From: Dehalococcoidia bacterium
GTDB taxonomy: Bacteria; Chloroflexota; Dehalococcoidia; Lucifugimonadales; UBA3495
DNA: 64,000 bases
Assembly: GCA_965204805.1 (NCBI GenBank)
Contig: OZ242013.1
Span: forward strand, 2,541,232 to 2,605,231
Reading direction: 5' to 3'
The notes under the pieces were generated by a model. That model was not told the DNA's origin and made no database searches. It saw only the letters and a program-made list of their open reading frames with translations. Position 1 is the first letter of the stretch; each line of letters starts with the position of its first letter. A program made the translations under genes and the position numbers. This document shows, one piece after another, positions 4,915-62,150 of this stretch.

Positions 4915-4982
4915 TTTTTGACATAACCTTGCCTCGCTGGTTAAATGCAACCCACTCCAACAGTAATTGAGACAGGTGAGCT

Positions 4983-6062: not shown

Positions 6063-6087
6063 GGGCGGACAGTCCGCTGGGCAAGGC

Positions 6088-8358: not shown

Positions 8359-9011
8359 TCGATCCTAGCTCAACTGCTACTTATCCAGCACTATGGAACC
8401 ACGACGCCAAGAAAGAAAATAGAATGGTTTGTAGTCCAGACTTCCAATTAGAAGTAAGGCCCGGGATGGAAGCCAAAGCTGCAACGGTTTGGACAACTGC
8501 AAGCCACACCCATATCAATCGGGATTTTACTTTTGGTTCACAGGCATTGGCCGTTGCCTTTACAGAACGGGATTCAATAGGCGGCAGAGTGTGGCCGAAT
8601 GTGATTTTCGGAAATGGAAAGTATGACTACGCTTTTACGGTATGGGGCAACAGCACATTGGGTTTGCTGGCCTACTGGTGGCACTCCAGCCGTCAGCAGT
8701 CCAGCAAGGCAAGCATGACCATACGCCAGGCCGAAACGCTGCCCGTCCTGGACTTTCGGGCGCTGAGCGATGAGCAGCTTGCGGTGGCGGAGGGCATTTT
8801 CGACGAGTTCCGGGGGCTGGAGCTGCTGCCGGCGTACTTGGCGGACGCCGACGGGAACCGGGCGCTGCTGGACCGGCGGGTGGTGTGCGAGCTGCTGGGG
8901 CTGGGGGAGGAGGCGTACCGGGGCGTGCGGCGGCTGGCGGCGAAGTGGTGCGCGGAGCCGTCGGTGCACGGGGGCAAGCGGCGGCCGACGGGGGCGGGGT
9001 ATGTGGAGTAG
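8301..9011 (+). CDS. probable C-terminal (target-recognition) part of the 6088 methyltransferase, in a different frame
   Basis: Overlaps the 6088..8358 ORF by 58 nt in another frame. This frame only opens after 8258, and there is no independent RBS. Confidence 0.45.
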   Translation: MGLVDRDITGPAPRGPFSLIDPSSTATYPALWNHDAKKENRMVCSPDFQLEVRPGMEAKAATVWTTASHTHINRDFTFGSQALAVAFTERDSIGGRVWPNVIFGNGKYDYAFTVWGNSTLGLLAYWWHSSRQQSSKASMTIRQAETLPVLDFRALSDEQLAVAEGIFDEFRGLELLPAYLADADGNRALLDRRVVCELLGLGEEAYRGVRRLAAKWCAEPSVHGGKRRPTGAGYVE

Positions 9012-9048
9012 GGGAGTGCACAAAGGGACGTCATTCTGCCCCAAAGTG

Positions 9049-9077
9049 TTGACAAATATAGCAAGAATTAGTAGATT
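9049..9077 (+). promoter_or_regulatory. sigma70-like promoter TTGACA-N17-TAGATT
   Basis: Perfect -35 (9049-9054), 17-nt spacer, -10 at 9072-9077. No CDS lies downstream on this strand. Confidence 0.35.
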
Positions 9078-9085
9078 TGGAGTGT

Positions 9086-9230
9086 AAATCCGCGGAGTGG
9101 TTGGATAAGTCGTCGCGTTTTACGGGATAGACGCCAGACATAGCCGCGGGTTTCCCCAAATCCGTGGAGTGGCCGGGGAAACGCCCATCCCGAGAGCGGG
9201 ATGGGTGCCGGACATAGCCACGGATTTCCC
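9086..9230 (+). ncRNA. candidate structured RNA: two tandem ~72-nt stem-loop units
   Basis: Unit 1 closes AAATCCGCGG/CCGCGGGTTT and unit 2 closes AAATCCGTGG/CCACGGATTT, a compensatory C:G to T:A change. AGTGG and GACATAG are conserved. It ends in CCCTTTTC. Confidence 0.25.
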
Positions 9231-9233
9231 TTT

Positions 9234-9958
9234 TCATCGGTACAAAGACACGGTAAAGGGGGAAGGTTTGTCCGCTTCCCAGAGAGGCCGCTGGTGCGTG
9301 ACTATCGGCTCGTCCGTCGAAACGCCCAGTCTGGTTTTCATATATCCAACCAGGTTTCTCCTTACGTCAGCCCTGCTAGAACTCTGAGGGTACAACCCGT
9401 TTGAGTCCCTCCAGTCAGCTTGAACACACCCCAAAAGCACATCAACCATCTGCAAGAATACCTGTGATTCTGACGAAGCACGAATACACCCGGCGACTTC
9501 TGAAACTGAGCGGAACTCGTCCTCGACCAAGACCGAAGAATTCTTCGGTGGCGGCTGAAAATCAACGATCGCAAACACCGGGCGCTTGAGCCGTTTTTCA
9601 AGCAGATCGCGCCCCAAAGAAATGTATGCCTCCCAAGCATTGTGCCCCCAGCGGGACAAACTGAAACCCGGTTCAGTTCTATCCACCAGCAAGGCGTGAA
9701 ATTCAAAGCAAGGGAAAGAAAAGTACAGATTTAGCAACTCAATGTATTGCGGCAGATTGTGCTTGGCTATTTTTGCGAATTTGTATTCGCGGTGCCAAGA
9801 TTTCTGCGACGCGAGGTCAAAGTGCAACTTATAGAAGCTGTCAGTGACCTTGCCTGGGTCGTTCACAATGAGCAGCCCGATGCCCCAAACACGGGCTGCT
9901 CCCTGATACGGGTGGTCAACACGCCAGTTTCGTCGACGAATGCAGGTAGAACTTTCAT
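9234..9958 (-). pseudogene. DUF3800-family gene with a frameshift
   Basis: The N-terminal MKVLPAFVDETG... (start 9958) is in one frame and stops at 9875-9877. The rest (9234..9866, ...LQMVDVLLG...) is in another frame. The junction is at a G4 run near 9883-9886. Confidence 0.6.
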
Positions 9959-9975
9959 TCGACTACGATACCTTA

Positions 9976-10897
9976 GAAACTATCTCAAAACCCTGAGTTG
10001 CCATTGCCGGCGATACCAGATTAGGGCGCAGGCCAGTTGGATCAGGCCAATGTAGTTGGATGCCTTCTTGTCGTACCGGACCAGAATCGCCCGGCACTTG
10101 GATAGCCAGGCCAGGGTGCGTTCCACCACCCACCGGCGGGCCGGATGGCGTTTCACTCCTGTGGCGTCCAGCTTCTCCTCTCCTATCCGCCGAATGTGGC
10201 CCCGGTACCCGTGCGCCGCCACTGCCTCGTGGCCTGTTGGGTTGTCGTATCCCTTGTCCAGGCACAGATGCTGGGTCCCGGTTCCAGGACGCTCCACCAC
10301 TATGCCATCCAAGGTCATGTCCAGCAGCTTGGTGTCGTGAACATTGGCTCCGGCCACCACCAGGCTCAATGGCCCTCCATCCCGGTCGACCAGGATACTC
10401 CGCTTGCTGCCCGCCTTGCCCCGGTCCGTGGGATTGCGGCCTATTGAATCCCCCCCAAACGGGCCTTGCCCATGGCGCAATCTGCGGCCTGCCACTCCCA
10501 GTCCACACCACCCAGTTCCTCGCACTCCGCGACCAACTCCGCCCAGATGCGCTCCAGCACGCCCAATTCCACCCAGCGCTGGAAAGTGCGGTGAATGGTG
10601 CTGTCGTCCCCCAGTTCCCGGGGCAGGCGGTTCCAGTGGCAGCCGGTGCGCATGCGGAATATGATGCCGTCCAGGATTCGCCTCGGATCAACCCGCTTCC
10701 GTCCCGTAGCCTTGGGAGGGTCCATCTCCAGAATCACCGGGTGAATCTGCTCCCACAAATCGTCTGGAACCTCCCAAATCGTTGCCAAAGTCTCCCTCTT
10801 TCCCCTCATCATCCACCGCCTCACCAAATTTTCCTTCATCCTAACCCAACCGGATTTTCCCTCTCCCCTTCGACCTCTCCTGTTTTGAGATAGTTTC
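9976..10897 (-). mobile_element. IS5-family (IS427/IS1031-like) insertion sequence, 922 bp
   Basis: 16-bp perfect terminal inverted repeats GAAACTATCTCAAAAC (9976-9991 / 10882-10897). TTA direct repeats flank it (9973-9975, 10898-10900). Confidence 0.85.
9980..10839 (-). CDS. IS5-family DDE transposase in two frames (orfA 10441..10839, orfB 9980..~10455)
   Basis: DUF4096-like N-terminus (ILDGIIFRMRTGCHWNRLP). DDE part is NPTDRGK...LDKGYD...VERTLAW. The frames meet at a G7 run (10450-10456). Confidence 0.8.
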
Positions 10898-10975
10898 TTA
10901 GTCATTGGCAAAGAGCAAGGCGAAAACGCCCGGAAATACCGGAAATTGTAGTCTGCATTGCTCGGAATACAGGAT

Positions 10976-11752
10976 TCAGTACCGCCACTCCGGTTCGCGC
11001 TTTTGCAGGAAGGCGGTTATGCCCTCGTGGGCGTCCTCTTTGAGCAGGTTGTCCACCATCACCTGCTGGGCCACGTCGTAGGCGGCGGGGCGGTCGAGTT
11101 CTATCTGGCGGTAGAAGGCGGGCTTGCCTATGGCCAGGGTCTGGGCGCTGGCGGAGGCTATCTGGCGGGCGAGGGCGGATACGTTGGCGTCGAGGTCGCT
11201 GTCGGGGACTACGCGATTGATGAGGCCGATTTCCAGGGCCTCGGAAGACGGGATGGGCGTGCCGGTGAGCAGCATTTCCATGGCCTTCTTGGTGGTGGCT
11301 ACGGAGCGGGCCAAGGCGACGCCGGGGGTGGTGCAGAAGAGGCCAATCTGTACGCCGGGGGTGGCGAAGGAGGCGGACTCAGCGGCCACGGCCAGGTCGC
11401 AGGTGGCGACTAGCTGGCATCCGGCGGCGGTGGCGAGGCCCTGAACCTGGGCAATGACCGGCTTGGGCAGCAGACGGATGGCCTCCATGACCTCGGTGCA
11501 TAGAGCAAAGACGGCGGTGTAGGACTTGGCGTCGCGGTTGATGATTTCGTTCAGGTCGTGGCCGGAGCTGAACACCGGGCCTTCGGAGCGCAGCACCACC
11601 ACGCGGACGGCATCGTCGTCTACGAACTGGCGGAACAGCTCCTTCAGCTCGCCCAGCAGTTCGGTGGACAGGGCGTTGCGGCGTCCGGGGTTGTTGAGGG
11701 TGAGGACGGCAACACCATCCTGCAATTCGTAGCGAACGAGCTGTCCGATCAT
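10976..11752 (-). CDS. enoyl-CoA hydratase/isomerase (crotonase) family protein
   Basis: NPGRRNALS...GPVFSSGHDL...GLATAAGCQL crotonase motifs. Confidence 0.85.
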   Translation of the reverse strand: MIGQLVRYELQDGVAVLTLNNPGRRNALSTELLGELKELFRQFVDDDAVRVVVLRSEGPVFSSGHDLNEIINRDAKSYTAVFALCTEVMEAIRLLPKPVIAQVQGLATAAGCQLVATCDLAVAAESASFATPGVQIGLFCTTPGVALARSVATTKKAMEMLLTGTPIPSSEALEIGLINRVVPDSDLDANVSALARQIASASAQTLAIGKPAFYRQIELDRPAAYDVAQQVMVDNLLKEDAHEGITAFLQKREPEWRY

Positions 11753-13216: not shown

Positions 13217-13248
13217 GGATACTCCAGTAGGTTGGGATGGGATCGTTC

Positions 13249-13269
13249 AATATCCTAATTTGGGATATT
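13249..13269. promoter_or_regulatory. inverted repeat AATATCC-N7-GGATATT upstream of the HTH-nuclease gene (possible C-box-like operator)
   Basis: Perfect 7-bp arms about 30-50 bp upstream of the 13300 start. Confidence 0.3.
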
Positions 13270-13299
13270 AGAAGGTGTCAACTTATTCTAACTCATATC

Positions 13300-14139
13300 A
13301 TGACTATGATTCCTCCAGACGCCTACGATAGATTTCGGCAGCTACTTATAGAAGCGCGCCAGAAGAGCGGCCTGACTCAGACGGGAGTCGCGGCTCGTTT
13401 AGGCGTTTCTCAATCATTCGTTTCCAAGTATGAACTTGGCGAGCGCCGGTTGGACGTTATTGAACTCCTGCGTATCTCCGACATACTAAACGCCGACGTT
13501 CACGACCTTGTACGGCGAATAGCCGCCGGAGAAGATTCTTCCTCTCATATAAGTATTCTGGAAGAATTAGGGCTGACTGTAACCGAGCTAACCGTACTGA
13601 TACACGAAAACCCTAGCCTGAGGGGTATGGTCGTCGGATATGCCGCTGAACGAAAACTCCAAGACTACCTGCAATCCCGCGATGACATCACCTATATCGG
13701 GAAGCCTGACGACCACGACCGTCAGAATAAAGGCGACCACGTAATCCGATATCGAGGCCATCAGTTCACCATTGAGATTAAATCCCTCCAGACCAGGATG
13801 GTCACCAAAGACGGCGATATTTGGCGCGGGAGAGCGCAAGTTGACGCCAGTGACCGCCGGACGGTGATTTTGGCTGACGGTAGCTCCCTTGAGACGACGC
13901 TGCTGACGGTTGGCGAATTTGACGTGCTGGCGGTCAACTGTTTTGCCTTTGGTCAAGGGTGGAATTTCGTGTTCGCCAAGAACGAGGATTTGCCGCGTAG
14001 CCGATACAGAAACTACACCGATGAAGTTCGCAGACAGCTTATTGCCAGTCTTGTGTCCGTTTCCTGGCCTCCTGAGCCACCGTTTGCCGATAATCTGCTT
14101 ACGGTGCTTGACGATTTGGTCAGTAGCCACGGCAACTGA
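13300..14139 (+). CDS. XRE-type HTH domain fused to PD-(D/E)xK nuclease (putative type II restriction endonuclease with built-in controller domain)
   Basis: N-terminus is LTQTGVAARLGVSQSFVSKYELGERR. The C-terminal part has GDHVIRYRGHQFTIEIKS (D...ExK). Convergent with a DNA methyltransferase. The segment is AT-richer. Confidence 0.55.
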   Translation: MTMIPPDAYDRFRQLLIEARQKSGLTQTGVAARLGVSQSFVSKYELGERRLDVIELLRISDILNADVHDLVRRIAAGEDSSSHISILEELGLTVTELTVLIHENPSLRGMVVGYAAERKLQDYLQSRDDITYIGKPDDHDRQNKGDHVIRYRGHQFTIEIKSLQTRMVTKDGDIWRGRAQVDASDRRTVILADGSSLETTLLTVGEFDVLAVNCFAFGQGWNFVFAKNEDLPRSRYRNYTDEVRRQLIASLVSVSWPPEPPFADNLLTVLDDLVSSHGN

Positions 14140-14142
14140 ACC

Positions 14143-14883
14143 CTAAGCTCGCTTGTTTTCCTTAATGAACACCAGAAAATACGAGTGGTTTTTTCTGGCG
14201 TGTACTTGTTTCTTCAATCTGGCGACAGACGGTTTGCTGGGGCGGACTACGACGAACAGGTCTTTGGCGTAGAAGCCCAGCGACTTGTAATCGTTGATTA
14301 TCTCCACGTGGGTGAGACGCTGGCGGTTGGCACTCACCTCGTCCTGGCACTTCACGATAAGAACGCCGTCGCGTTTAAGCACCCGAAACGCTTCTCGCCC
14401 GGCTTCCCGGTATAGTTCTGTAACAGCATCGTGCCACTTAGCCTTTTCCGGCCTTTCATGGCCGTTGGAGTAGTGTTCCCGGAAGGCCGAATAGCTGCCC
14501 CCGCCCGCTTTCTGACTTGCATCGTTCCGGAAAAAGCCTTCCATATATGGCGGGTCCAGCACTACGCAGTCAATTTCGCCATCAAGATAAGGCAACTCAC
14601 GGCAGTCCACTCCCATTGATATATCCGTAGCACGGACATCGTAGATTCCGTCGCGGACTTTCTGCCAAAAGACGCCCTTTCCCCAAGTTACGTCCGCTAC
14701 GGTTGCTCCCTCCGGTACGTGCAAGCTCATGACTTGGGCGAACACATCGGCATTGCCTCCCACATGAGCGGACAGGGTGACATCGCTGGTAGCGACGCCG
14801 CCCTGCACTCGCCGGTTTCCCTGCATTTCAGGTTGCAACGCCATTCTGAACTGGTTTCCCGCCCTAGCGGTTTCTTCTATCAT
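14143..14883 (-). CDS. DNA methyltransferase (DPPY motif; N6-A or N4-C)
   Basis: [10 protein letters not shown] (SAM-binding-like) followed by [10 protein letters not shown], then [13 protein letters not shown]. Confidence 0.75.
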
Positions 14884-27231: not shown

Positions 27232-27981
27232 ATGACGCGACTGGAAGGACGGACGGCCCTGGTCACCGGGGCGGGACGAAACATCGGGCGGGCCATTGCC
27301 CTGAAGCTGGCGGGCGAGGGGGCCAACGTGGTGGTCAATGCCCGCTCCAACCGCGATGAGGCGGAGGCGGTGGCCGAGGAGGCGCGGGGCCTGGGCGTGG
27401 AGTCCATGGCGGCGCTGGCCGACGTGGCCGACCACGAGCAGGTGTCGCGGATGTTCGCCGCCGCCGCCGAGCGGTTCGGGCAGGTGGACGTGCTGGTCAG
27501 CAACGCCGCCATCCGCCCGCACAAGCCCTTCACCGAGCTGGCGCTGGCCGACTGGGAGCGGGTGCGCGGCGTGGTGCTGGACGGCGCGTTCTACTGCGCC
27601 CGCAACGCCCTGCCGGCGATGCAGGCCAACGGCTTCGGGCGCATCGTGTTCCTCACCGGCGACGGGGCCTGGAACGGCTCGGCGGAGCGTTCCCACGTGT
27701 CGGCGGCCAAGATGGGCATCGTGGGCCTGGCCCGGGGGCTGGCCTCGGAGTTCGCGCCCCACAACGTGCGGGTCAACGTGGTCTCGCCGGGACGCATAGA
27801 CACCAGCCGCGACCTGTCGTGGTATCCGGGGCAGAACATGGCGGACACGGCGGAGATTCCCCTGGGTCGCCTGGGCCACGTGGACGACATCGCCGCCGCC
27901 TGCGTGTTCCTGGCCACAGACGACTGCGGCTTCATCACCGGGCAGACGCTGCACGTGAACGGGGGGACGGCGTATTTCTGA
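27232..27981 (+). CDS. SDR-family oxidoreductase (FabG-like)
   Basis: TGAGRNIGRAIA, NAAI and S...YxxxK-like (SAAKMG) motifs. C-terminus is ITGQTLHVNGG. Confidence 0.9.
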   Translation: MTRLEGRTALVTGAGRNIGRAIALKLAGEGANVVVNARSNRDEAEAVAEEARGLGVESMAALADVADHEQVSRMFAAAAERFGQVDVLVSNAAIRPHKPFTELALADWERVRGVVLDGAFYCARNALPAMQANGFGRIVFLTGDGAWNGSAERSHVSAAKMGIVGLARGLASEFAPHNVRVNVVSPGRIDTSRDLSWYPGQNMADTAEIPLGRLGHVDDIAAACVFLATDDCGFITGQTLHVNGGTAYF

Positions 27982-28043
27982 GGGGCGTCCCAGCATACCT
28001 GCCGTTGCTATACTGTCCTCAAACTTCACGGGCGTGGCTTGAA

Positions 28044-28382
28044 ATGATTGAAACAACGCCGCCGGAAAGCAGCGAAGAGCTCCCGGACCCGGAAACCTAC
28101 GGGGCCGAAGAGCGTCTGGCCGACGCGCTGGAGCAACTCCCTACCCCCGAAATGGTCAGGACATTAGGAGAGTTGCTAAAACCCGACGAACTGCGGGAAG
28201 TGGCCGAAGGGCTGCTGATTGATTGCGCCCAAGCCGTCCGCAAAGGAAATCTCCTGGAAAGCGCTGAGGCCATTAACGGTTGGACTGCGACAGCGGAAGA
28301 GATTATCACGACAAGAGGGCGATTCAGCGCCCTCAAGAAGACAATGGAAGAGATAAGAGCCAAATACCAGAAGACTGAGTAA
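28044..28382 (+). CDS. putative antitoxin-like small acidic protein
   Basis: 112 aa, directly upstream of a RelE/ParE-like ORF. No recognised domain. Confidence 0.35.
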   Translation: MIETTPPESSEELPDPETYGAEERLADALEQLPTPEMVRTLGELLKPDELREVAEGLLIDCAQAVRKGNLLESAEAINGWTATAEEIITTRGRFSALKKTMEEIRAKYQKTE

Positions 28383-28456
28383 AGACTGTTGTTGTCCGGC
28401 CAATATCAAGTAATCATGCTTCCACGACCGCCAGGTTCATCGACCGCCACCCCGAC

Positions 28457-28657
28457 TTGGCGGCCCGCGTCAGCGGCATACTTCAATACCTGTCCGTGAA
28501 TCCATACGCCGGGCCAAGGATTACGCATCTGAAAGGCCGGTTCCACTGTCGCCGCAGGTGGCGGGAAGGCGACTACCGAATCCTCTACGACGTCATTGAA
28601 GACGACCGGGTGGTTGAAATTTTCGACGCGGACAATCGCGGCCAGATTTACAGGTAA
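28457..28657 (+). CDS. RelE/ParE-fold toxin, N-terminus atypical or decayed
   Basis: ...L..NPYAGPRITHLKGRFHCRRRWREGDYRILYDVIEDDRVVEIFDADNRGQIY. The frame is open from about 28400 but has no ATG/GTG before the TTG at 28457. Confidence 0.45.
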   Translation: MAARVSGILQYLSVNPYAGPRITHLKGRFHCRRRWREGDYRILYDVIEDDRVVEIFDADNRGQIYR

Positions 28658-28661
28658 TCTG

Positions 28662-28752
28662 GCCGCCTGCGTGTTCCTGGCCACGGACGACTGCGGCTTC
28701 ATCACCGGGCAGACCATCCACGTGAACGGGGGAACGGCGTACTTCTGAGGGG
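28662..28752 (+). pseudogene. orphan duplicate of the SDR gene 3' end (last ~28 codons plus stop)
   Basis: About 90 bp matching 27895-27985. It encodes AACVFLATDDCGFITGQTIHVNGGTAYF* against ...QTLHVNGGTAYF*. Confidence 0.75.
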
Positions 28753-28913: not shown

Positions 28914-31859
28914 ATGAACCAACAAGCCCGCAAGACCATCGGCGTCGCACTGCTCCTGGCCGCGGCCCTCCTCGCTATTCTGGTTGTTACCGTTCTTTCG
29001 TCCTCGTCCCCGCCCGGAGTTGCCGCGCACGAGTGCGCCCCTGATCCCACCCCGAATCACCAAGACTCCCGTGGGGCGGATTGCGATACTAACGAACACC
29101 GCGACCCTGATCACCAAGCCCCCCGCAAGGTCAACACAGTGGACGGGGGAAGAGACCGGAAGCTGGTGTTCCATGTCAGTGCGGGAGAAGGCAGCAGCTA
29201 CCTTGGCGAAAACGACCAGATCGAATTCATGCTGCCGGGGTTTGACCTGCCAAATAGCATTGACAAAGAACTCATAAAACTTTCCGGCAGCGGTGACCCC
29301 GATGACCAAGACCCTCTCAACCCGTCGTCTGCCACCCCTGGCGTCGGCAATTTACTAACCCTGGCTTTGCCACCTGGGCTTGCAACCAGAATCGGCGCTC
29401 ACGAGTACCTCATCGTTACCATTGAAAAAGGAACCGGTATCCTAACGCCGGAAATTCCCAAAGGGTTCGACGACTCTGATGAAGGATACAGTGTCGGCAT
29501 TACCTTAATCGATAAGGCAAACACCAACAATCCGAGCCGGAGTGATCCTCAGTACGAAAACATCGTAGTGGTCAGGAACCCTGTCAGTTCCACCGTTCCC
29601 AGCGATACGGTGCACGTTGAGCTGGCAACACACACGGAAATGGATCTCAAAAGCGGCGATGAAATCACGGTGGATTTTTCCGGCCCTTCCGCCGATTCTG
29701 ACTTCGTCGTTCCGGCCAGCAGAGTAACCAAAGGCAGGATTAAGATAGACCCCGATGATCCTAATGTCATGCCAAGTTCCTTCCCACCTTCGGATGTCCT
29801 GGTTCAGGGCGCCAGGGTGACACTAACTATTCCGAGAATAGATGAAGCCGAGATAAATTGGGCAGGCGACTACACTATTTCCTTCACCTCCGCCGCCGGC
29901 ATCAAGAACCCCTTTGCCGCCGGTAACCATGTCATAAAGGTTTGGTCCTCTGTCGAGGGAGAAGACAAAGGAGACGATATAACGGCGGTAATACGGCGGA
30001 CAACCACGATAGATACCGAGGAAGGCCCTCGCGGAACTGAGTTCATCCTGACGGGCAAGGGCTACCCACCTGGCACGGTCACCGTCTACCACGACGCCGA
30101 CTGCGACGGGAAAATCGACGCCGGGGAAACCCTGGCTTCCAGGAACACCACGAGGGGCGTGTTTAACGTTGACCTGGTAGCCCGCGAGCCCCGCGAACTG
30201 GATATTCCTGAGTGCCGCCCATTGAATCCCCTTGAGTACCGGGTCAAGGCCAAGGACAGCGAAGGAGTGGACGCTGAGGTGGTTTTCCGCATCGAAAGCG
30301 GTATCCTCTTCGTCCCGGACCCGGCCCAGGTCGGCTCGCCGCTGAAAATCACCATCTCGGACTGGAAGAACCCCAATGAGCACGTGGCCGTCGTCAATAT
30401 TGCCGGTGAACCGGCCTACGTCACGGGCGTGAAAGCGTATAGCAACTGCATCGACTATACCGGCGAATTCAGGGCGAACGACGACCGCGTGATGTCCCTT
30501 GAGGTCCTGGTTCCTGTGCACGTGCCGCCGGGGGAGCAGACGGTTGCGCTCTATGACCATGGAGAGTTGGTGAATTATCTGGTAGATGAAAAAGGCAAAT
30601 ATGTGCTCGATGATGAAGACAACAAGATTCAATACACCGAGGTTGTGGATGTGTGCTCCGACCTGCCTTCAAACAAAAAAAGGGGAAGCAGGGTTGACAG
30701 CAATTTGGTGGCTGAGCTGAAGGAGGAGCCGTCGCCACCAATAATCAAGGCAACCGTCAAGATAGTGGAGCAGAACTTGACGCTGACCCCGGACACGGCG
30801 GCGCGGGGGCAGAAGGTCACCATTACCGCCACCGGGTTCACCCGGGCCGCAAGGGGAGAGGACCACATCAGGTCGGTGTGGATCGGGGGCGTGAGGGTTC
30901 CCGACGACCATTCAGAGTTCGAGGTGGGAACCAACCGCGACATCGCTTTCACCGTCACCGTCCCGCTGGACGTTGCCGACGGGCCCAATGAGGTGCTGAT
31001 AGAAGGCGCAGACCACACCCTGGGCCAAGCGACGCTGGAGATACCGAAAGCGTCCATCACCCTCGCCCCGCCGCAGGGACAGCGAGGCACGGAGCTTACG
31101 GTGACCGGCAGCGGCTTCGTCGCCAAGGAAGCGGTGCTGCTGTCCTACCACAGCGGGGCGCTTATCACGTCCGCAACCACCGAACTGGCAAGTTCAGGGA
31201 TACTGGCCGATGCCCAGGGCGGGTTTGAGTTGCCTTTCAAGGTGCCGGTCACCGCCGAGGTGGGATTGAGCCACCTGGTCACTGCGGTGAGCAAGGCGGA
31301 TACCCCCGCAGCGGTCAGGGCCGAGGCCAGCCACCTGGTCACCCGGACCGACATCACGACCACGCCCGGTTCGGTATCGCCGGGCGATCACCTGGCCATC
31401 AGCGCCCGTCGCATGCCGCCCTTCACGCTGGTCGGCCCCATAAAAATCGCCAGCATACCCCTCAGCCTCCCTCCCGGAGTCGCCACTGATGAAGACGGCT
31501 CCTTCGAGACGAAGGTCCTGATTCCCCATATCGAATATGGAGACCATACCCTGCTGGTCCAGGTGGCCGGGGTGATAATTCCCCACGTAGTCGAGGTGGC
31601 CCCCCCACCCCTCAGCGGCCCGCCCGGCCAGGTGTTCAAATACCCAATCAGGAGCGGGACATTATCAACGGTATGGCACTACGACAACGCCACCCAGTTG
31701 TGGAGCCTGTTCGACCCATTGCTCAATGGGGAGATGGCGGAACTGAACGACCTGACGGAGGTCGGCAGCGGCGACATAGTGTGGGTCAATGTGAGCGAAC
31801 CGCTGTTCTTCCAGGGGAACAGTCTGAAGTCCGGCTGGAACCTGGTCAAGCTGGAGTAG
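28914..31859 (+). CDS. large secreted/anchored surface protein with IPT/TIG-like Ig-fold repeats
   Basis: N-terminal TM/signal (IGVALLLAAALLAILVV). Repeated G(Q/P)(K/R)GTE(L/F).(V/L)TG.GF units. Confidence 0.6.
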   Translation: MNQQARKTIGVALLLAAALLAILVVTVLSSSSPPGVAAHECAPDPTPNHQDSRGADCDTNEHRDPDHQAPRKVNTVDGGRDRKLVFHVSAGEGSSYLGENDQIEFMLPGFDLPNSIDKELIKLSGSGDPDDQDPLNPSSATPGVGNLLTLALPPGLATRIGAHEYLIVTIEKGTGILTPEIPKGFDDSDEGYSVGITLIDKANTNNPSRSDPQYENIVVVRNPVSSTVPSDTVHVELATHTEMDLKSGDEITVDFSGPSADSDFVVPASRVTKGRIKIDPDDPNVMPSSFPPSDVLVQGARVTLTIPRIDEAEINWAGDYTISFTSAAGIKNPFAAGNHVIKVWSSVEGEDKGDDITAVIRRTTTIDTEEGPRGTEFILTGKGYPPGTVTVYHDADCDGKIDAGETLASRNTTRGVFNVDLVAREPRELDIPECRPLNPLEYRVKAKDSEGVDAEVVFRIESGILFVPDPAQVGSPLKITISDWKNPNEHVAVVNIAGEPAYVTGVKAYSNCIDYTGEFRANDDRVMSLEVLVPVHVPPGEQTVALYDHGELVNYLVDEKGKYVLDDEDNKIQYTEVVDVCSDLPSNKKRGSRVDSNLVAELKEEPSPPIIKATVKIVEQNLTLTPDTAARGQKVTITATGFTRAARGEDHIRSVWIGGVRVPDDHSEFEVGTNRDIAFTVTVPLDVADGPNEVLIEGADHTLGQATLEIPKASITLAPPQGQRGTELTVTGSGFVAKEAVLLSYHSGALITSATTELASSGILADAQGGFELPFKVPVTAEVGLSHLVTAVSKADTPAAVRAEASHLVTRTDITTTPGSVSPGDHLAISARRMPPFTLVGPIKIASIPLSLPPGVATDEDGSFETKVLIPHIEYGDHTLLVQVAGVIIPHVVEVAPPPLSGPPGQVFKYPIRSGTLSTVWHYDNATQLWSLFDPLLNGEMAELNDLTEVGSGDIVWVNVSEPLFFQGNSLKSGWNLVKLE

Positions 31860-52370: not shown

Positions 52371-53384
52371 ATGACGACTGCAATCGCTCCAGATAACACA
52401 TCCTCCTCAGCCAACGGCAGCGGGGCGCTGCTGGAAGCCGTGGGGCTGAAAAAGCACTTCCCCGTGACCAAGGGCCTGCTCATCAGCAAGACCACCGGCC
52501 ACATCAAGGCGGTGGACGGCGTTTCCTTCGAGCTGCGCCCCGGCGAGACGCTGGGCATCGTGGGCGAGTCGGGCTGCGGCAAAAGCACCACCGCCAAGAT
52601 GATGCTGATGCTGGAAGATCCTACGGAAGGCTCCATCCGCTTCGAGGGTAAAGAGATACGGGACGCCGACCCGGAGACGCGGCGGGAATACCGCCGCTCG
52701 GTGCAGGCAGTGTTCCAGGACCCGTGGAGTTCCCTGAACCCGCGGATGCGGGTGAGGGACCTCATCGCCGAGCCGATGGTCATCAACTGGGACATCAGCC
52801 GGGGACAGATCCAGGAACGGGTTCTCAAGCTGCTCACCGACGTGGGCCTGAGCGCATATCACGCCAACCTGTATCCCCACGAGTTCTCCGGCGGACAGCG
52901 CCAGCGCCTGGCGATTGCCCGCGCCCTGGCCCTCAACCCCAAGGTCATCGTGCTGGACGAGCCGGTTTCCGCGCTGGACGTGTCCATCCGCGCCCAGATA
53001 ATGAACCTGCTGAAAGACCTGCAGTCGGAGTACAACGTCAGCTATATGCTCATCGCCCACCACCTGGCGACGGTGCGCTATATGTGCACCTGGGTGGCGG
53101 TGATGTACCTGGGCCGCATAGTCGAGCTGTCACCGGTGAAGGACCTGTTCGAGAATCCTTCGCACCCGTACACCAAGGCGCTGATGTCGGCGGCCCTGCC
53201 GTCACACCCCGATACAGTGCAGGAAGAGATGATCCTGACCGGCGAGGTGCCCTCGCCGCTGAACCCGCCGGAGGGCTGCCACTTCCACACCCGCTGTCCC
53301 TTCGTCATGGACCACTGCGGCGTGCAGGAGCCGCAGGTGAAGGAAGTTTCCCCCGGCCACACCGTCGCCTGCCACCTGTTCTAA
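52371..53384 (+). CDS. ABC transporter ATP-binding protein (DppF/OppF-like)
   Basis: [16 protein letters not shown] and [10 protein letters not shown] motifs. Confidence 0.85.
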
Positions 53385-53863
53385 ATTGTTGGCGTCGATT
53401 CCATTGTCGTCAGTCCAATTTGGCAGGATGCGTTCATTTGAATACAAGAAGAATGCCCCTCCTCGCTGCTGACGGGAGTATGTAGCGGCTTAAACCGGAC
53501 CTGCGCTTAGCTTGAGAAGACGCCTGGGGGAACTCCCGCAGTGAAACCTCCCGGCTATCGGCCCGTCACAACGCCAAGAAGGTCCTCTGGTGTCCGGCTC
53601 GGATTCCACAGGCTGTCCACCATCCTCCTTACCACGGTGTCCAAGTCTTCGGTAATGCCCAGGATGGCCCCGCTGAGGCGGGCCAGACAGTTCCGCTTCT
53701 TCCGCTCTCTCCGGTCCAATCGCTGCCCCATTGGCCCGGCAAAACTCCGGTGGCCGCCACTTCACCGGCCACGGCATTCCGCGCCGTCAAGGCCATTCCG
53801 ACGCAATTTCCTAAACGTTACAAGAAGTCATATAATTATTACTAAAATTCACACTTATGTTAC

Positions 53864-56049
53864 ATGACTGGTGATATAGTGGACTTGTCCGGCAGTGAGG
53901 CTGGAGCCGGGCTTGGCTGCTGCCCTAGCCCTGGCTCAAACCTGGCCTGGGGAGTTGCCCGCTATGCGCCCTTTTTCACCCCCCCCCCCCCGACTTTCGC
54001 TGGGATTCTTCTTCTTGCGCTGATTCTTGCCGGATTGCTGGCAGCCTGCGGCTCGGATGCGCCGCAGGCCACAGAACAGCCCACTGCTGTCGCGCCTCCG
54101 GTGACCGCCGCCACATCACCGTCGCCGGTGCCAACGGCAACACCCACGCCGACGCCCCGGCCTGCGGCAACGTCCGCGCCTGAACCAACCGCCGCCCCCG
54201 CTCCTACACCGTCGCCCACTCCCGCGCCAACCCCTACCCCTACGCCAACGGCCACTCCAGCTCCTACGGCTACCCCTGCTCCGACACTCACGCCGACACC
54301 TTCACCAACAGCTACCCCTGCTCCGACGCCAACCGCCATGCCCACGCCCACGCAGACACCAGTGCCGACACCTTCACCGACAACTACTCCGGCCCCGACG
54401 CCAACGGCCACGCCTGCGCCAACGACCACACCCACGCCCACGCAGACACCGGCGCCGACATCCACCCATATCCCCAAGGAGCAGCGCGATGCGAACGATT
54501 ACATCGTCTGGAAAATCGGTAGTGGGGTTAGCCCCGGGGCGGAGGCCGAGGCCAGGGCCGTCGTCTATGCCATGCATGACTTTGCCGTCAGCAACGGTCT
54601 GCCCCGAATCGATGGCCCTATAACCATCTTCCTCTACCACAACCTCGATGCCTTGGAGGCTGAATTTGAGGCATCTACCGGGCTTCAGTCTGAGAATTGG
54701 TTCTGGCCGGGTTTTAGGGATGGGAGGACTCCCATAACCTCCAGAAGAGATTTCATTGCAGTGAACACGTCGGCAAGCTATTACCAGGGTGTTTCGCGAG
54801 ATGAACGGGCAAGGCTATTGGCTGAAGGACTGTTTGATGCTCTGCGCCGCGCGTTGACCGGAATATGGGAGGGCGCTCCATGGGACGCTGTAAGCCGTGA
54901 GGGTCCTGTGTGGTTGTGGCATGGCGCCAGCCGTTTTTTTGCTTGGCAGTCGACCAAGACGCTGGGGCAGGAGTCATGCGACCTGTCCAGGAACCGCTTT
55001 GCCACATTACCGCAATCAGCAGACGAGACACTCAGCGAGTTGGAAACCTTGGCGGGCTTCGATTATCAGGGGGGCACTCCGCGTACGGGTTTCTCGCGGT
55101 GGAGTTGCTTTCGGAGCGGGCAGGCAAGGAGTCCATATTCGCCTATTTTGCATCGCTCAAGACCGGAGGCACCTGGCAGGATGCGTTCGAGCGGGCTTTC
55201 GGAATGACCGTGGATGAGTTCTACCAACTGTTCGAGGAGCGCCGTACGGCCGGATTTCGCCAGCCACGTTGCCCGACGCTGCCACCGCTGGTCACCTTGC
55301 CGGGTTCTCCGGAGTATGTGAAATGGGAGATTGGTTCCGGCGTCCCGCAGGAGTATGTCCATGACTCGGTCGAGGGTGTCCGGCTGATGCACGAATATGC
55401 CGAGTCTCTGGGTATGCCTGAGATAGAAACGGAGTTCACTGCCCACCTGTACTACGACCAGATTGAGCTGATAGCCGCCTACCAAGCCGCAACAGGAGGC
55501 GATGGGAATTGGGTTCCTGAGGGATCTAACGCTGTAGCTTACGGCTCTGGCTTTTTCACGAATACTCTGCGTTGGGAAGAGCGAAAGACATCCTCCGACG
55601 ATCGGAAGAAGATTTCCGCGCATGAGTTGTTTCATGTCTTCCAGTCTCACGTGTCGTTGAATCGCTCACGAGAGGCGACGTGGCTGTCGGAAGGTACCGC
55701 AGAGTTTCTTGCTTTCAGGGCTTTGGACGCGGTAGATGTGGTCGACTATGCTGTAGAACGAAGTTCGCGTAGGGGATTCGTAGAGATCGCGCGACGTGTA
55801 GAAAGACCTCTGAAAGAGATGGAAGAAGGGCATAAAGCCATCCAGTATGACTATTCCCTACTGGCGGCGGAACTCTTGGCGTCACGGACCGGAGAAAAAT
55901 CGCTCTTCCGATTTCTAGAGATCCAGAGTACTAGTGGGACCTGGCAGGAGGCGTTCCAAACCGCCTTCGGGATGACCGTAGAGGAGTTCTACGAGTTGTT
56001 CGAGGAACACCGCGCCGCGGGATTCCCCGAGGTGGAGATACCCAAGTGA
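53864..56049 (+). pseudogene. two-module metalloprotease-like lipoprotein, split by a frameshift at a G6 run (55069-55074)
   Basis: Lipobox LLAACGS and a long PT-rich linker. Module A has a degenerate AEGLFD and module B an intact HELFH. Both modules end ...W(Q)(D/E)AF..AFGMTV(D/E)EFY.LFEE(R/H)R(T/A)AGF. Confidence 0.55.
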
Positions 56050-56065
56050 AGCCGCGCCAGTCCGT

Positions 56066-56117
56066 AAGGAAGTCTCTCCAGGCCACACCGTCGCCTGCCA
56101 TCTGTTCTAAGTTCTTA
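56066..56117 (+). pseudogene. orphan duplicate of the dppF-like gene 3' end
   Basis: Encodes [14 protein letters not shown], identical to the end of 52371..53384. The coding differences are synonymous. Confidence 0.7.
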
Positions 56118-56133
56118 ACACACAGCGCGACAG

Positions 56134-56757
56134 TCAACTCCACTGCGGGGGCTTGGCGAGGACGTATCCGTCGGGCTTGACTACCCTATCGGGCAGCAGG
56201 CTGGCGCTAATCCGGCGTCGGCCTATGACAAACGACGCGTTTACCGCCTGGTTGAGACGTATGGAAACACGATTCGGCGGGAAGGCCGCAATAACTCGTT
56301 TTTCCTGGTATCGGCGGCGGATGGCCTCTATCGGCCCGGCCAAGTCACTGTCGCCTGAGATAACAATCGCAGTGTCAAAGGCATCGTCCTGAGCGTCGCA
56401 CATCAGTTCAACGGCAATGTTTACGTCGGTCATTTTTTCTTCGTAAGTTTCCTGTGCCACGCCACATTGTCGGCAGAATACGCGCTTGGGCAGGAAATAC
56501 CCATAATGAATATACAAGCCAGGGAGAGTTTCCAGCGCTTCCAAGTACGTCTGTTGCCGCTCTGATTGCTCGGGGTCATAGGCCAGCCGTATAACCCTGG
56601 CGGTAAAATATCTGACCGTCATCAATTGTTGCCCGTATTGGAGCAGGTTCTCAGCCAGACGGCGCAAGTCCAGACAGTAGTATCGCCGCCAGCCCTTGGA
56701 CTTGAGGCCGTAGTAAAGGTTAAACCCGTCAACGTATACCGATACGCGCTGCATCAT
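56134..56757 (-). CDS. NYN-domain (LabA/DUF88-like) predicted RNase
   Basis: RVSVYVDGFNLYYG...IVISGDSDL motifs. Confidence 0.75.
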   Translation of the reverse strand: MMQRVSVYVDGFNLYYGLKSKGWRRYYCLDLRRLAENLLQYGQQLMTVRYFTARVIRLAYDPEQSERQQTYLEALETLPGLYIHYGYFLPKRVFCRQCGVAQETYEEKMTDVNIAVELMCDAQDDAFDTAIVISGDSDLAGPIEAIRRRYQEKRVIAAFPPNRVSIRLNQAVNASFVIGRRRISASLLPDRVVKPDGYVLAKPPQWS

Positions 56758-56785
56758 TGTTATCTCTGCAAGCGAAAAATTTGGA

Positions 56786-56814
56786 TTGACATGAAGCAAC
56801 GATTTAGTTATTAT
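56786..56814 (+). promoter_or_regulatory. sigma70-like promoter TTGACA-N17-TATTAT
   Basis: Perfect -35 with 17-nt spacing and a 5/6 -10. Confidence 0.4.
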
Positions 56815-56820
56815 ATCTGT

Positions 56821-56883
56821 ACCCCCCTAGCGATGGCATCGCTAGGCTGACGCTCCCTCTGCGAGGGGGCGTTTCTCTTTTTT
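56821..56883 (+). ncRNA. candidate ~65-nt sRNA or leader: two hairpins plus U-tract
   Basis: CCTAGCGAT-GGC-ATCGCTAGG, then ACGCTCCCTC-TGC-GAGGGGGCGT followed by TTCTCTTTTTT. Confidence 0.3.
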
Positions 56884-56938
56884 ACCTGTTGGAACCCGAA
56901 CCTTGAAGCCGCCGCCGCCCCGGTGCTAGAATCTGGCA

Positions 56939-57754
56939 ATGCCGACGCAGGCACAGACGAAGAAGCAGCGCCGCAGCCCAACCATGTCGCCGGTCCGCAT
57001 CGCCCAGGCCGTCGAGCTGATGGCGCAGGAGTACGGGCCCTTCGAGGCGGAGCGGCGGCTGCCCCCAACCGACGAGATGGTGTTCACCATCCTGTCGCAG
57101 CATACGTCGGACATCAATTCGGGCCGCGCCTACAACCGGCTGATGGAGCGGTTCGGAACGCTGGAAGCGGTGGCCAGGGGCGACGTGGCCGAAATCGAAG
57201 AGGCCATCGCGCCCGGGGGACTGGCCAAGGTCAAGGCCCCCCGAATCAAGGAAGTCCTGGGGAAGGTGCTGGAACTAAACGGCGGGTCGCTGGACCTGTC
57301 CTTCCTGCGGGAGATGCCGCTGGCCGAGGCGAAGGCGTGGCTGCGGCAACTGCCGGGCATCGGCCCCAAGTCCACCGGCATCGTCCTCAACTTCTCCCTG
57401 GGTATGCCAGCCATGGCCATAGACACCCACATCTTCCGGGTGTGTCAGCGGCTCCGCGCCATAGACGCCAGGACCAACGCCGACAAGGCCCACGACGTTA
57501 TGGAAGCCAAGGTGCCGCCCGAGGAAGTGTTCAACTTCCACGTGGCCTTCATCAACCACGGGCGACGGGTCTGCAAGGCGCAGCGTCCCCTCTGCGAGTC
57601 GTGCGTTGTGGGCGGGATGTGCCCGTCGCGCAAGAAAATGATGACTAAATCCGCCGCCACGGAAAACGGAGCCAAGTCCGCCCGCGCGTCCAGAAGCGCC
57701 CAGAGTGGGCCCGGCCCGATGCCCCATATTCCCCCGCAGACGGGTTCAGAATAA
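56939..57754 (+). CDS. nth: endonuclease III-family HhH-GPD base-excision glycosylase
   Basis: HhH (LPGIGPKST), a catalytic-region D and FeS cluster CKAQRPLCESCVVGGMC. The start is uncertain (56939 or 56984). Confidence 0.8.
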   Translation: MPTQAQTKKQRRSPTMSPVRIAQAVELMAQEYGPFEAERRLPPTDEMVFTILSQHTSDINSGRAYNRLMERFGTLEAVARGDVAEIEEAIAPGGLAKVKAPRIKEVLGKVLELNGGSLDLSFLREMPLAEAKAWLRQLPGIGPKSTGIVLNFSLGMPAMAIDTHIFRVCQRLRAIDARTNADKAHDVMEAKVPPEEVFNFHVAFINHGRRVCKAQRPLCESCVVGGMCPSRKKMMTKSAATENGAKSARASRSAQSGPGPMPHIPPQTGSE

Positions 57755-58876: not shown

Positions 58877-58954
58877 GCCCCGGTCGTCTAGCCAGGTCAG
58901 GATGCCACCCTTTCAAGGTGGAGATCAGGGGATCGAAGCCCCTCCGGGGTACCA
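58877..58954 (+). tRNA. tRNA-Glu: tRNA-Glu (anticodon UUC), CCA encoded
   Basis: Cloverleaf folded by eye. Anticodon arm is CCACC-CTTTCAA-GGTGG and T-arm is GGGGATCGAAGCCCC. Close to canonical tRNA-Glu. Confidence 0.9.
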
Positions 58955-58967
58955 ACCTCGAAATGCG

Positions 58968-59002
58968 AATCCACGCCACCGCAAGGGGCGTGGATTGCTT
59001 TT
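58968..59002 (+). terminator. rho-independent terminator after tRNA-Glu
   Basis: AATCCACGCC-N9-GGCGTGGATT followed by GCTTTT. Confidence 0.6.
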
Positions 59003-59082
59003 AGAACCTTCCTCGTTTTGCCTCAGATATTCGTTTCGTTCCCGCCACATATCCATGCATTAGTGTTCGGCTTCGATAGCCA

Positions 59083-59400
59083 ATGGATTACGAAGTCCGC
59101 TTGTCGGAACCGGCAATTGCCATGCTCTTGAAAATCCCAGATGCGGCTACCCGGCGACTGGTTTCGGAACGTATCAACCTGCTTGCCAGAGACCCGGAAA
59201 GGCAAGGCGGATTTCTCAAAGGAGGGCTATCCAGATACCGGAAGTGCCGAGCCGCAGGGAGACGCTACCGAATTCTTTATCGAATAGATGAAACCACTTC
59301 AACGGTGATTGTGACGGCAATAGGGGCCAGGAATCCGGGAGAACCGGATGACATATACAGAATTGCCAATCAACTGTTACAGGAAGGCTTGTTGGAATAG
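59083..59400 (+). CDS. RelE/ParE-family toxin
   Basis: ...RYRKCRAAGRRYRILYRIDETTSTVIVTAIGARN... signature. Confidence 0.8.
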   Translation: MDYEVRLSEPAIAMLLKIPDAATRRLVSERINLLARDPERQGGFLKGGLSRYRKCRAAGRRYRILYRIDETTSTVIVTAIGARNPGEPDDIYRIANQLLQEGLLE

Positions 59401-59414
59401 CCCAAGGCTGAGGT

Positions 59415-59744
59415 GTGGCAATGTCCTCTTCAATCTACACGTTAACCAGTGCAATGGCGCTTAAAGCAGCCAAAAACCGGTTCTCTCAACTGCCTCGCCG
59501 CGTGAACGATTCCCAGACGGTAATCCCCATCACCCGTCAAGGACGCCCGGTTATGGCGCTTATGTCTTGGGAAATGTTCGAGTCCCTAGTGGATACCATC
59601 GAAATACTGTCCGACCCGGAGCTTATGTCCCAGATAAACGAAAGCGAAAAGGCCATTGCCGAAGGCAGAACAGTTCCGTTCAGCGAGGTTCTGGCGGAGC
59701 TGGGCATCAACCTCGACCGCACCCCCTTAGAAAGTGGCGAGTAA
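59415..59744 (+). CDS. Phd/YefM-family antitoxin (encoded after the toxin)
   Basis: ...VIPITRQGRPVMALMSWEMFESLVDTIEILSDPELM.... Confidence 0.75.
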   Translation: MAMSSSIYTLTSAMALKAAKNRFSQLPRRVNDSQTVIPITRQGRPVMALMSWEMFESLVDTIEILSDPELMSQINESEKAIAEGRTVPFSEVLAELGINLDRTPLESGE

Positions 59745-59869
59745 CCGGTAAATTTGTTCCAGAAACAGGACATTGGCTTGGTCAATGGCCTGTTTTCATT
59801 CGTATATGGACTGCATCTGAAATTTTTGGACATCATGGTAATCAATGTCCAACTCGGTGTCGTGACAAT

Positions 59870-61419: not shown

Positions 61420-61547
61420 GATGTTCTCCCATATCAAAATGGATGGGCAGATGATACCAAAGGCAACCGGACCAGGAAATGACGATGGCAGGGGGACGCA
61501 GCATGGGTTGCAGACTTATAATGGCAAAACAGCGGAGGGTGCTAATT

Positions 61548-62150
61548 ATGACGATGCTGAAACCTCGCTCCGGGATGCGGCTGACCGCCGAAGAGTTTAT
61601 GGAGCTGCCCGATACATGGGACAGGCGGAAGATGGAGCTGGACGAGGGAGTTCTGTATATTATGCCGCGCCCACGGAGAGTCCACGGATTTTTTCAACTC
61701 AAGCTGGCTTTTCCGGTTGACCAATACCTTGACAGTTTCGACGAGCCGCCAGCGGAACTGATGATGGACTTCATTGTCGCACTGTCCTTGGAAAGTCGTG
61801 TTTTGCTGGCGCCGGACCTATGCATCGTCCTGCGAGGAAATCCGGTTGTCCTCACTGACCGCATGGTAGAAGGTGCCCCCGACATAGCGATTGAGGTGCT
61901 CTCATCCGACCGCAACCGAGACTTGGTTCGCAAGCGGCAACAGTACGGCGAAGCGGGTGTTCAGGAATACTGGATTTTCGACCCTCGCAACGATACCGCC
62001 ACGCTCCTGGAACTGCGCGACGGCGGGTATATTGAGAGGGCCGTATTGACCGCCGATGACATACTGACTACGGGGCTGCTTCCTGGCCTTGCCATACCAC
62101 TGGCCGACGTGGTTCACCACCGCCGCCGCCCGGCGGATAACGGCGACTGA
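61548..62150 (+). CDS. Uma2-family (DUF820) PD-(D/E)xK endonuclease
   Basis: ...KMELDEGVLYIMPRP...APDLCIVL...PDIAIEVLS...Y...GV.EYWIFDP. Confidence 0.8.
   Translation: MTMLKPRSGMRLTAEEFMELPDTWDRRKMELDEGVLYIMPRPRRVHGFFQLKLAFPVDQYLDSFDEPPAELMMDFIVALSLESRVLLAPDLCIVLRGNPVVLTDRMVEGAPDIAIEVLSSDRNRDLVRKRQQYGEAGVQEYWIFDPRNDTATLLELRDGGYIERAVLTADDILTTGLLPGLAIPLADVVHHRRRPADNGD

Follow-up and report, generated by a model that had tools for sequence, protein, structure and literature searches.

Orphan copies of core-gene 3' ends at two accessory islets of a Dehalococcoidia genome: possible scars of recombination at hotspots

Introduction

Integrative elements, whether conjugative (ICEs) or mobilizable (IMEs), inserted at the 3' ends of protein-coding genes are flanked by attL and attR repeats, and derivatives that have lost their integration genes are known as cis-mobilizable elements (CIMEs) (PMC5704250). 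Duplicated fragments of a target's 3' end also mark hotspot integrations in the tycheposon islands of Prochlorococcus and in the ssrA-flanked islands of Dehalococcoides (bioRxiv 10.1101/2020.12.28.424599; PMC3146451). Here, we describe two small accessory islets of comparable layout in a 64-kb stretch of a sponge-associated Dehalococcoidia genome (GenBank assembly GCA_965204805.1, contig OZ242013.1, positions 2,541,232 to 2,605,231 of the forward strand; hereafter the window, whose own numbering we use). One islet lies behind a dppF-like peptide ABC transporter gene and the other behind a short-chain dehydrogenase/reductase (SDR) gene. At both, the last codons of the core gene recur, as an orphan, beyond the inserted genes. 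An earlier note, made from the sequence alone, had pointed out this arrangement and proposed a recurrent mechanism of gene gain that targets gene termini.

Two further kinds of rearrangement serve as comparison. Homology-facilitated illegitimate recombination (HFIR) was reportedly described by de Vries and Wackernagel in 2002, and the 'minimal mobile elements' are said to go back to Saunders and Snyder in 2002; in the known cases DNA is cleanly replaced or recipient DNA is deleted, and they are not known to keep a duplicate of a gene end. The target-site duplications of transposons are typically 2-14 bp long, identical when made, and bounded by inverted-repeat ends together with a transposase.

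Duplicated ends of dppF and of an SDR gene

The dppF-like ABC ATPase gene of the window (52371-53384, forward strand; Pfam ABC_tran 2.9e-37, oligo_HPY 3.6e-18) is intact. Its last 14 codons and stop codon (copy 1, 53340-53384) form a sequence repeat with positions 56066-56110 of the same strand (copy 2), where no gene body lies upstream. As the earlier note had claimed, both copies have the same 14-residue translation, and all four differences between them (GTT/GTC, TCC/TCT, CCC/CCA and CAC/CAT) are synonymous third-position changes. Identity is 88% over 51 nt (53340-53390 vs 56066-56116), although the meaningful repeat unit is the 45 nt that end at the stop codon, as the 4/6 matches just beyond it are at chance level. 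The orphan follows the stop codon of a protease-like gene (56047-56049) after a spacer of 16 nt, rather than the 17 nt given before; the right edge of this spacer (56050-56065) is the junction. About 2.7 kb, made up of a 479-nt leader and the protease gene, parts the orphan from the body of dppF.

A second islet of the same layout had been suspected at 27895-28752, and it is real. The functional end of the SDR gene (27232-27981, forward strand; Pfam adh_short_C2 7.2e-59) at 27895-27985 is repeated on the same strand at 28662-28752, with 93% identity over 91 nt. The cargo between the two copies (28044-28657, forward strand) comprises an antitoxin gene (28044-28382) and a ParE/RelE-like toxin gene (~28390-28657), and the orphan lies upstream of a large surface-protein gene (28914-31859).

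When the last 120 nt of 47 window genes were each aligned to the following 7 kb, two pairs alone rose above the background, with scores of 76 (SDR) and 36 (dppF); the background did not exceed 19 save for one pair of tandem paralogues at 25.5. Because no other pair stands out, both islets are real rather than chance matches. Orphan gene ends of this sort are also a trap for annotation pipelines.

The dppF islet in related genomes

The closest relative of this region is locus L001 (the L numbers denote loci of relatives), from a sponge-derived Chloroflexi metagenome-assembled genome (MAG), with 98% identity in the DppF protein and 92% in the DNA of dppD-dppF. The protein is 75-95% identical to those of dozens of Dehalococcoidia/SAR202-type MAGs. 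The order dppABCDF-endoIII-asd is kept in 26 of the closest relatives, and tRNA-Glu comes next in most of them. One relative, L018, carries two dpp-type operon copies in tandem (1-11033), upstream of the conserved dppF-endoIII junction.

In these 26 syntenic relatives, 40-973 nt separate the dppF stop codon from endoIII. Mostly the gap is empty (40-231 nt); in L014 it measures 451 nt and no gene is recognised in it. The three closest relatives carry a PaREP1-like gene (~135 aa, Pfam 31 bits) between dppF and endoIII (L001 2120-2790; L002 11015-11555; L008 11018-11515), where the window has the protease block, the orphan and a gene with an NYN domain. The protease block is absent from all 26 syntenic relatives and from all 80 fetched loci, and none of these 80 related loci contains a second dppF tail peptide.

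The NYN-domain gene (56134-56799, reverse strand; Pfam NYN 5.1e-16) is the orphan's neighbour. It is accessory, convergent with dppF, has a third-position G+C of 0.62 and, among the 26 syntenic relatives, occurs in the dppF-endoIII gap of L011 alone (76% protein identity). Positions 56066-56880 of the window align with L011 10988-11807, which consists of the intact dppF tail followed 25 nt later by the NYN gene. Since this match starts exactly where the orphan starts, the orphan is a dppF end still joined to its neighbour as in L011. An intrinsic terminator closes the gap (56849-56883, forward strand; an 11-pair stem followed by a T-run in a terminator scan) and is found after the cargo in the window, L001 and L011 alike; the cargo therefore lies between the dppF stop codon and this terminator.

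Beyond the terminator, sequence affinity switches. The 5' end of endoIII (56920-56990, the first ~17 codons and some upstream sequence) is 87-91% identical to L011 and L016 vs 67-81% to L001, and from ~57000 onward L001 is the closest locus to the window (93-95%). The switch near 56990-57000 could mark a recombination breakpoint beside the hotspot, and could equally reflect a change in the L001 lineage. Within the 3' part of dppF, sliding 120-nt identity against 14 relatives showed no break that would mark a foreign tract, a comparison of little power given that the nearest relative is 8% diverged.

The SDR islet in related genomes

For the SDR region, we compared 14 loci of relatives, reached via SDR orthologues and antitoxin homologues. 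In L093, the SDR stop codon is followed after 39 nt by the large surface-protein gene, with no toxin-antitoxin cassette; in L084 and L092, likewise without the cassette, SDR leads straight into CoA-transferase genes. L085 has other cargo at the site (DUF3226 and AAA_15). Together with the dppF sites of the 26 relatives, L093, L084 and L092 bear out the earlier view that both blocks are accessory gains at core-gene 3' ends: both islets are insertions relative to empty sites, and each orphan is joined to the gene that is the neighbour in relatives.

The same order as in the window (SDR, toxin-antitoxin cassette, orphan, large gene) is found in L083, L086, L087 and L091. In L088, L089 and L090 (3880-4900, one assembly record), the cassette, orphan and large gene are present and the SDR gene itself has been cleanly deleted, from an upstream palindromic repeat to its stop codon. 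As the orphan tail is kept there, an orphan outlives its source gene. The repeat at the edge of this deletion is the palindromic intergenic repeat CTGTCTGAACTGTGATTT, which has three copies in the window (20130, 22479 and 27084).

The toxin|orphan junction is identical in the window, L083 and L086-L091, a conservation that points to a single ancient event inherited by the clade, whose SDR genes are 91-97% identical. Nine contigs that were assembled independently, and that come from six ENA assembly records, show the SDR-toxin-antitoxin-orphan layout, which is therefore no assembly artefact.

The cargo has fared unevenly. The match of the toxin to ParE_toxin is marginal (1.8e-4, 22.5 bits, with a cut-off of 23) and no Pfam family matches the antitoxin; the sizes and order of the genes would suit a type II toxin-antitoxin module. 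Compared with its counterparts in L086 and L083, the toxin gene of the window has lost 1 nt near 28425 and is frameshifted. Its open reading frame (ORF) is intact in L086 (4346-4615) and L091, and a separate nonsense codon (TGG to TAG, ~1900) interrupts it in L083. The lesions in the window and L083 are independent, so the toxin has decayed repeatedly while the antitoxin stayed intact.

The right side of the islet has also changed. The orphan is full length in the window, and full length with its stop codon lost in L091. In L083 (2001-2045) and in L086 and L087 (4615-4660) it is cut after ~29 nt and leads directly into the start codon (ATG) of another allele of the large gene. From lineage to lineage, the N-termini of the large surface protein diverge strongly, suggesting that its alleles are often replaced and that the junctions are imprecise.

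The orphans of the window and L091 lie close to the functional tail of their own genome, with 6/87 and 9/87 differences, vs 16 (window-L091), 19 (L088-L091) and 11 (L088-window) of 87 between orphans of different genomes. The window orphan differs from the functional tail of L083 at only 3/87 positions. All full-length orphans carry TAC where all functional tails carry TAT, except that of L093 (TTT). The shared TAC and the within-genome closeness fit orphans that arose once and then underwent gene conversion in the central part of the repeat. The SDR islet is old, has a single origin and has evolved in concert with the functional end, and gene conversion clearly contributed.

Divergence between the copies

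The differences between the copies are of a coding type in both islets: 4/4 are synonymous for dppF and 5/6 for SDR. If only the orphan had drifted, so strong a bias would have a probability of P = 0.006 (dppF, 4/4) or P = 0.007 (SDR, at least 5/6); if the functional copy also gained synonymous changes, P rises to 0.036 (dppF) and 0.056 (SDR). The bias therefore indicates that the two ends are two functional alleles, or that they have been exchanging sequence. For the dppF islet, which is young in that it is absent from L001, an origin from two alleles would be the simpler reading. We also considered the synonymous differences as proof that a diverged donor allele arrived at insertion; that argument has to be softened, as conversion and allele turnover of the kind found at the SDR islet give the same pattern.

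The two dppF copies are 8.9% apart, and the window and L001, which lacks the insert, are ~8% apart over dppD-dppF. Compared with the dppF tail of L001, copy 1 differs at 1/42 coding positions and in the stop codon. At the four sites that vary between the copies, the L001-type allele is found in copy 1 at three and in the orphan at one.

Cargo of the dppF islet

The inserted block opens with the 479-nt leader (53385-53863), which the earlier note had rightly described as a non-coding stretch of about 480 bp. It has no codon-position G+C signal in any frame, its ORFs match nothing in Pfam or NCBIfam, the leader itself matches nothing in Rfam, and neither blastn nor tblastx found a relative of it in 93 loci. 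An AT-rich, promoter-like stretch lies at ~53800-53870.

The gene that follows (53964-56049, forward strand) encodes an MA-clan metalloprotease-like lipoprotein, of two modules as had been recognised, with a lipobox signal peptide, a PT-rich linker (~54050-54460) and modules A and B. Module A is without an HExxH motif and module B carries HELFH; the Peptidase_MA_2 match (5.7e-6, 26.7 bits) is under the cut-off of 32.4. The protein belongs to a family of 54 clusters, all but one of them in ENA, with best identities of 62-73%. These homologues are intact and have one to three modules, with HExxH in some of them, and every module of the family terminates in ...TWQEAF..AFGMTVEEFYELFEEHRAAGFP. In loci L081 and L082 the homologues sit among transposases and resolvase fragments; a comparison of the surroundings with those of the protease block gave only coding similarity, with no shared non-coding flank.

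In the window, the gene apparently is inactive, with two homopolymer frameshifts. A C13 tract (53979-53991), the sole homopolymer of at least 9 bases within the 64 kb, lies 15 nt past the natural ATG (53964), which is thereby left one base out of frame, and a G6 run (55069-55074) splits the ORF further on. The C13 frameshift could reflect slipped-strand phase variation, decay or a consensus error.

The claim that the block is AT-richer than its surroundings holds for the enzyme-like part (53-59% G+C vs 62-65% in the dpp genes), and fails for the stretch around the PT-linker (54000-54600), at 66-69%. The third-position G+C of the protease ORF is 0.62, vs 0.86 for dppF and 0.80-0.93 for core genes.

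Mobility genes and other features of the window

No recombinase domain (integrase, resolvase or other) was found in ~60 window ORFs scanned across the 64 kb, in line with the earlier statement that none is encoded locally. The sole mobility gene of the window is an IS4/5 transposase split into two ORFs (9980-10911). Neither islet contains an integrase or a fragment of one, terminal inverted repeats or a transposase. The boundaries of the two islets, for which a common motif had been considered, share none. The string CCWGGCCAC, common to both repeats, is within chance expectation by our estimate.

Searching ~1.6 Mb of related loci gave no convincing further pair of gene tail and orphan; a self-BLAST of the 80 loci returned only intergenic repeats and paralogues. 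Relatives carry other cargo at the same hotspots, cleanly bounded and free of orphans. The 26 syntenic relatives have neither a larger insert nor an orphan at the dppF tail, and at the SDR tail, the 14 relatives' loci contain only the same small toxin-antitoxin unit and no larger element. The proposal of a recurrent mechanism aimed at gene termini is not supported by these comparisons, as the two events are far apart in time, no boundary motif is shared, no further convincing case turned up and the hotspot cargo of relatives has clean boundaries. The islets are independent gains and look like scars of a known kind at ordinary hotspots rather than products of a dedicated terminus-targeting mechanism.

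The window contains a third islet of low G+C (58955-59800), downstream of tRNA-Glu (58877-58954), where a ParE toxin lies at 59083-59400 and a Phd/YefM antitoxin at 59415-59744. At this site, relatives have other content, or only part of this pair (L010, L022). We found no partial copy of tRNA-Glu beyond this cassette. The window as a whole is dense in defence and selfish genes (2055-2742; 6088-8358; 13237-14883; 9980-10911; 61479-62150), namely a HigB-like toxin with a partner ORF, an Eco57I-like restriction-modification protein, an HTH regulator beside an N6/N4 DNA methylase, the split IS4/5 transposase and a Uma2 nuclease. Most of these have a third-position G+C of ~0.55-0.72, under that of core genes, and the Eco57I-like ORF, at 0.79, is near it. 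A hairpin-forming intergenic repeat, CACCCTAACCCTCTCCCTCAAGGGAGAGGG, occurs in six copies (12267, 18119, 31925, 34759, 37334 and 43731).

Origin of the islets

We tentatively favour the reading that a single recombination event left each islet as its scar, at a hotspot beginning directly behind a core gene's stop codon, while holding it at somewhat less than even confidence. In this clade, the spacer between this stop codon and the next gene or terminator holds interchangeable accessory genes, which would normally be swapped cleanly by homologous recombination in the conserved flanks. At each islet, one exchange junction may instead have landed inside the last 14 codons (dppF) or 29 codons (SDR). 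The outcome would be two allelic gene ends in one chromosome, the first closing an intact gene and the second left untranslated as an orphan that keeps its neighbour in relatives, the NYN gene or the large surface-protein gene. The dppF islet accordingly looks like a 2.7-kb foreign block inserted in the last 14 codons of a gene that stayed intact, with the old end orphaned downstream.

The likeliest route would be that two alleles of the hotspot recombined, one of them carried, for instance, by incoming DNA of a related lineage. On one side there would be a homologous crossover; the other side, with only the 45-90 nt of the gene-end flank, would have been joined illegitimately. Such an event would be HFIR; a single crossover of the Campbell type within the short homology of the tails would be an equivalent description, and no locally encoded recombinase would be needed. 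The orphan would then be a passive relic; gene conversion by the functional end could overwrite part of it, and later exchanges could shorten it. The toxin-antitoxin cargo would help the SDR islet to survive, because a deletion between the repeats would remove the antitoxin. The enzymology, and which of the two copies came from outside, are what we infer here.

Several observations would favour hotspot exchange: the empty and alternatively filled sites, the joining of each orphan to its neighbour in relatives, the coding-type divergence of the copies, the mosaic flank in endoIII and the second imprecise SDR junction (L083, L086 and L087). The lack of a recombinase in the ~60 scanned ORFs and of element-specific arms on the orphans also counts in its favour.

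Other points weigh against this reading. The donor arrangement (dppF followed by the protease block, or SDR followed by the toxin-antitoxin genes without an orphan) was not seen in the loci compared, and comparing 56050-56070 and 28650-28670 by eye with what lies upstream of copy 1 gave no convincing microhomology. The four dppF sites, polarised against L001 and L002, are too few to call which copy is native. Both junctions fall tidily 5-16 nt past the last stop codon of the cargo, which also fits a compact element with defined ends. Documented HFIR usually deletes recipient DNA and does not duplicate it. Finally, a duplicated gene end is the textbook mark of site-specific integration, so the prior favours the rival considered next (PMC5704250).

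That rival takes the islets for decayed site-specific integrative elements of the CIME kind, in which an attP mimicked the gene 3' end, a tyrosine or serine recombinase inserted the element, and the integrase was later lost together with most of the element. The functional hybrid end would be attL and the orphan attR, with only cargo left between them. We rate this as unlikely, yet it is the strongest of the alternatives. Direct repeats flank both inserts, one of them restoring the gene 3' end so that dppF and SDR are both full-length, and CIMEs retain attL and attR without integration genes (PMC5704250). The partial tRNA scars of the tycheposon islands are a parallel case. A toxin-antitoxin module and a secreted protease are typical cargo of mobile elements, the setting of the protease homologues in L081 and L082 fits, the cargo genes are decaying through frameshifts, and the 479-nt stretch next to copy 1 could mark a lost integrase gene.

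However, no integrase or recognisable fragment is left in either islet or anywhere in the 64-kb window, no larger element or other orphan occupies these sites in the 26 dppF and 14 SDR-region loci, and the toxin-antitoxin unit is merely ~680 nt. The SDR orphans have no conserved left arm, a comparison confined to that islet as there is only one dppF islet. The marker common to all SDR orphans (TAC vs TAT) lies at the end expected to be host-derived. Its absence from L001, at 92% nucleotide identity, marks the dppF islet as young, and still its integrase would already be gone. All this evidence is of a negative kind.

An in-situ duplication by template switching during replication or repair receives little credence from us. 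Here, synthesis would have passed the stop codon, copied the cargo from another place and re-entered the original template 45-90 nt upstream, so that the two gene ends would have been identical at first and diverged later. No recombinase and no donor with a matching gene end would be needed, arbitrary duplication lengths such as 45 and 91 nt would be natural, and the near-identity of the window SDR orphan to the functional tail of L083 (3/87) fits an identical pair followed by change in copy 1. Yet free drift should give mostly non-synonymous changes, whereas those of dppF are all synonymous (P as given above, for drift in the orphan or in both copies), and the dppF copies are as far apart as the window is from L001, which has no insert.

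We consider an assembly artefact, in the form of a chimeric join of two strain variants in the metagenome assembly, to be very improbable. The dppF islet is seen in the window only, its junction 24- and 26-mers had no match in JGI metagenome contigs (two scans), and sparse coverage of a variable region could explain the homopolymer frameshifts of the cargo. Against this, the sister layout at SDR recurs with the same junction across its nine independent contigs and six ENA records, no shared k-mer at 56065/56066 could have driven a false join, and the orphan, whose left part differs from copy 1, is no collapsed or duplicated path of reads.

That the orphans are what deletion left of another, paralogous peptide-ABC operon (or of another SDR gene) formerly located downstream of the cargo is hardly credible: tandem paralogous dpp operons do exist in the clade, but the second set of L018 is upstream, no second operon lies between dppF and endoIII in any of the 26 syntenic relatives, and the orphan starts exactly where the match to the intact tail and NYN gene of L011 starts, an argument that applies equally to SDR and L093, so this scenario, named earlier as a possible refutation, is removed.

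We can also imagine, as a rather improbable further reading, that sponge-symbiont Dehalococcoidia gain small cassettes without a local recombinase, through an incoming core-gene tail of 45-90 nt that undergoes a single crossover in a self-restoring insertion. If this were true, the two gene ends of such an insertion would evolve in concert and could loop the cassette out, and toxin-antitoxin cargo would stabilise it. Such 'gene-tail cassettes' would be a general and overlooked vehicle of gene flux, with orphans as their only footprint, and a homology-only route of integration would matter for models of gene flow in lineages without obvious mobile elements.

The islets point neither to a novel enzyme nor to a novel class of mobile element. 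They are two dated examples of accessory genes entering the short spacers behind stop codons in compact symbiont genomes, with the upstream gene left unbroken. A displaced gene end can persist for long, partly refreshed by gene conversion, and such orphans serve well as markers when the order of past events at a hotspot is reconstructed.

Comparison with known systems

As in transposon target-site duplications, direct repeats of the target flank the inserts. They differ in being 45 and 91 nt long, allelic and 91-93% identical, with no element ends. HFIR and minimal mobile elements offer another likeness: foreign genes have been gained between conserved genes without an element-encoded recombinase, one or both junctions may be set by homology in the core flank, and relatives carry alternative cargo at the same site. 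Unlike in the known cases of those systems, a gene-end duplicate has been retained here, and microhomology at the junctions is not evident.

The tycheposon and ssrA islands use tRNA or tmRNA targets and dedicated recombinases, whereas the targets here are protein-coding ends and no recombinase was found; the tRNA-Glu hotspot of the window (after 58954) also differs in showing no partial tRNA copy. What the islets share with these islands is that degenerate remnants of the target's 3' end persist at the hotspot. The comparison with ICEs, IMEs and CIMEs cuts both ways. The units described here are tiny (0.7 and 2.7 kb), the SDR orphans are without a conserved element arm, and unlike ICEs and IMEs, the islets have neither an integrase remnant nor a full-length relative in the 26 dppF and 14 SDR-region loci. 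They nevertheless have the same architecture as these elements, with accessory DNA between direct repeats, one of which provides the functional end of a housekeeping gene that stays whole, the other being its orphan.

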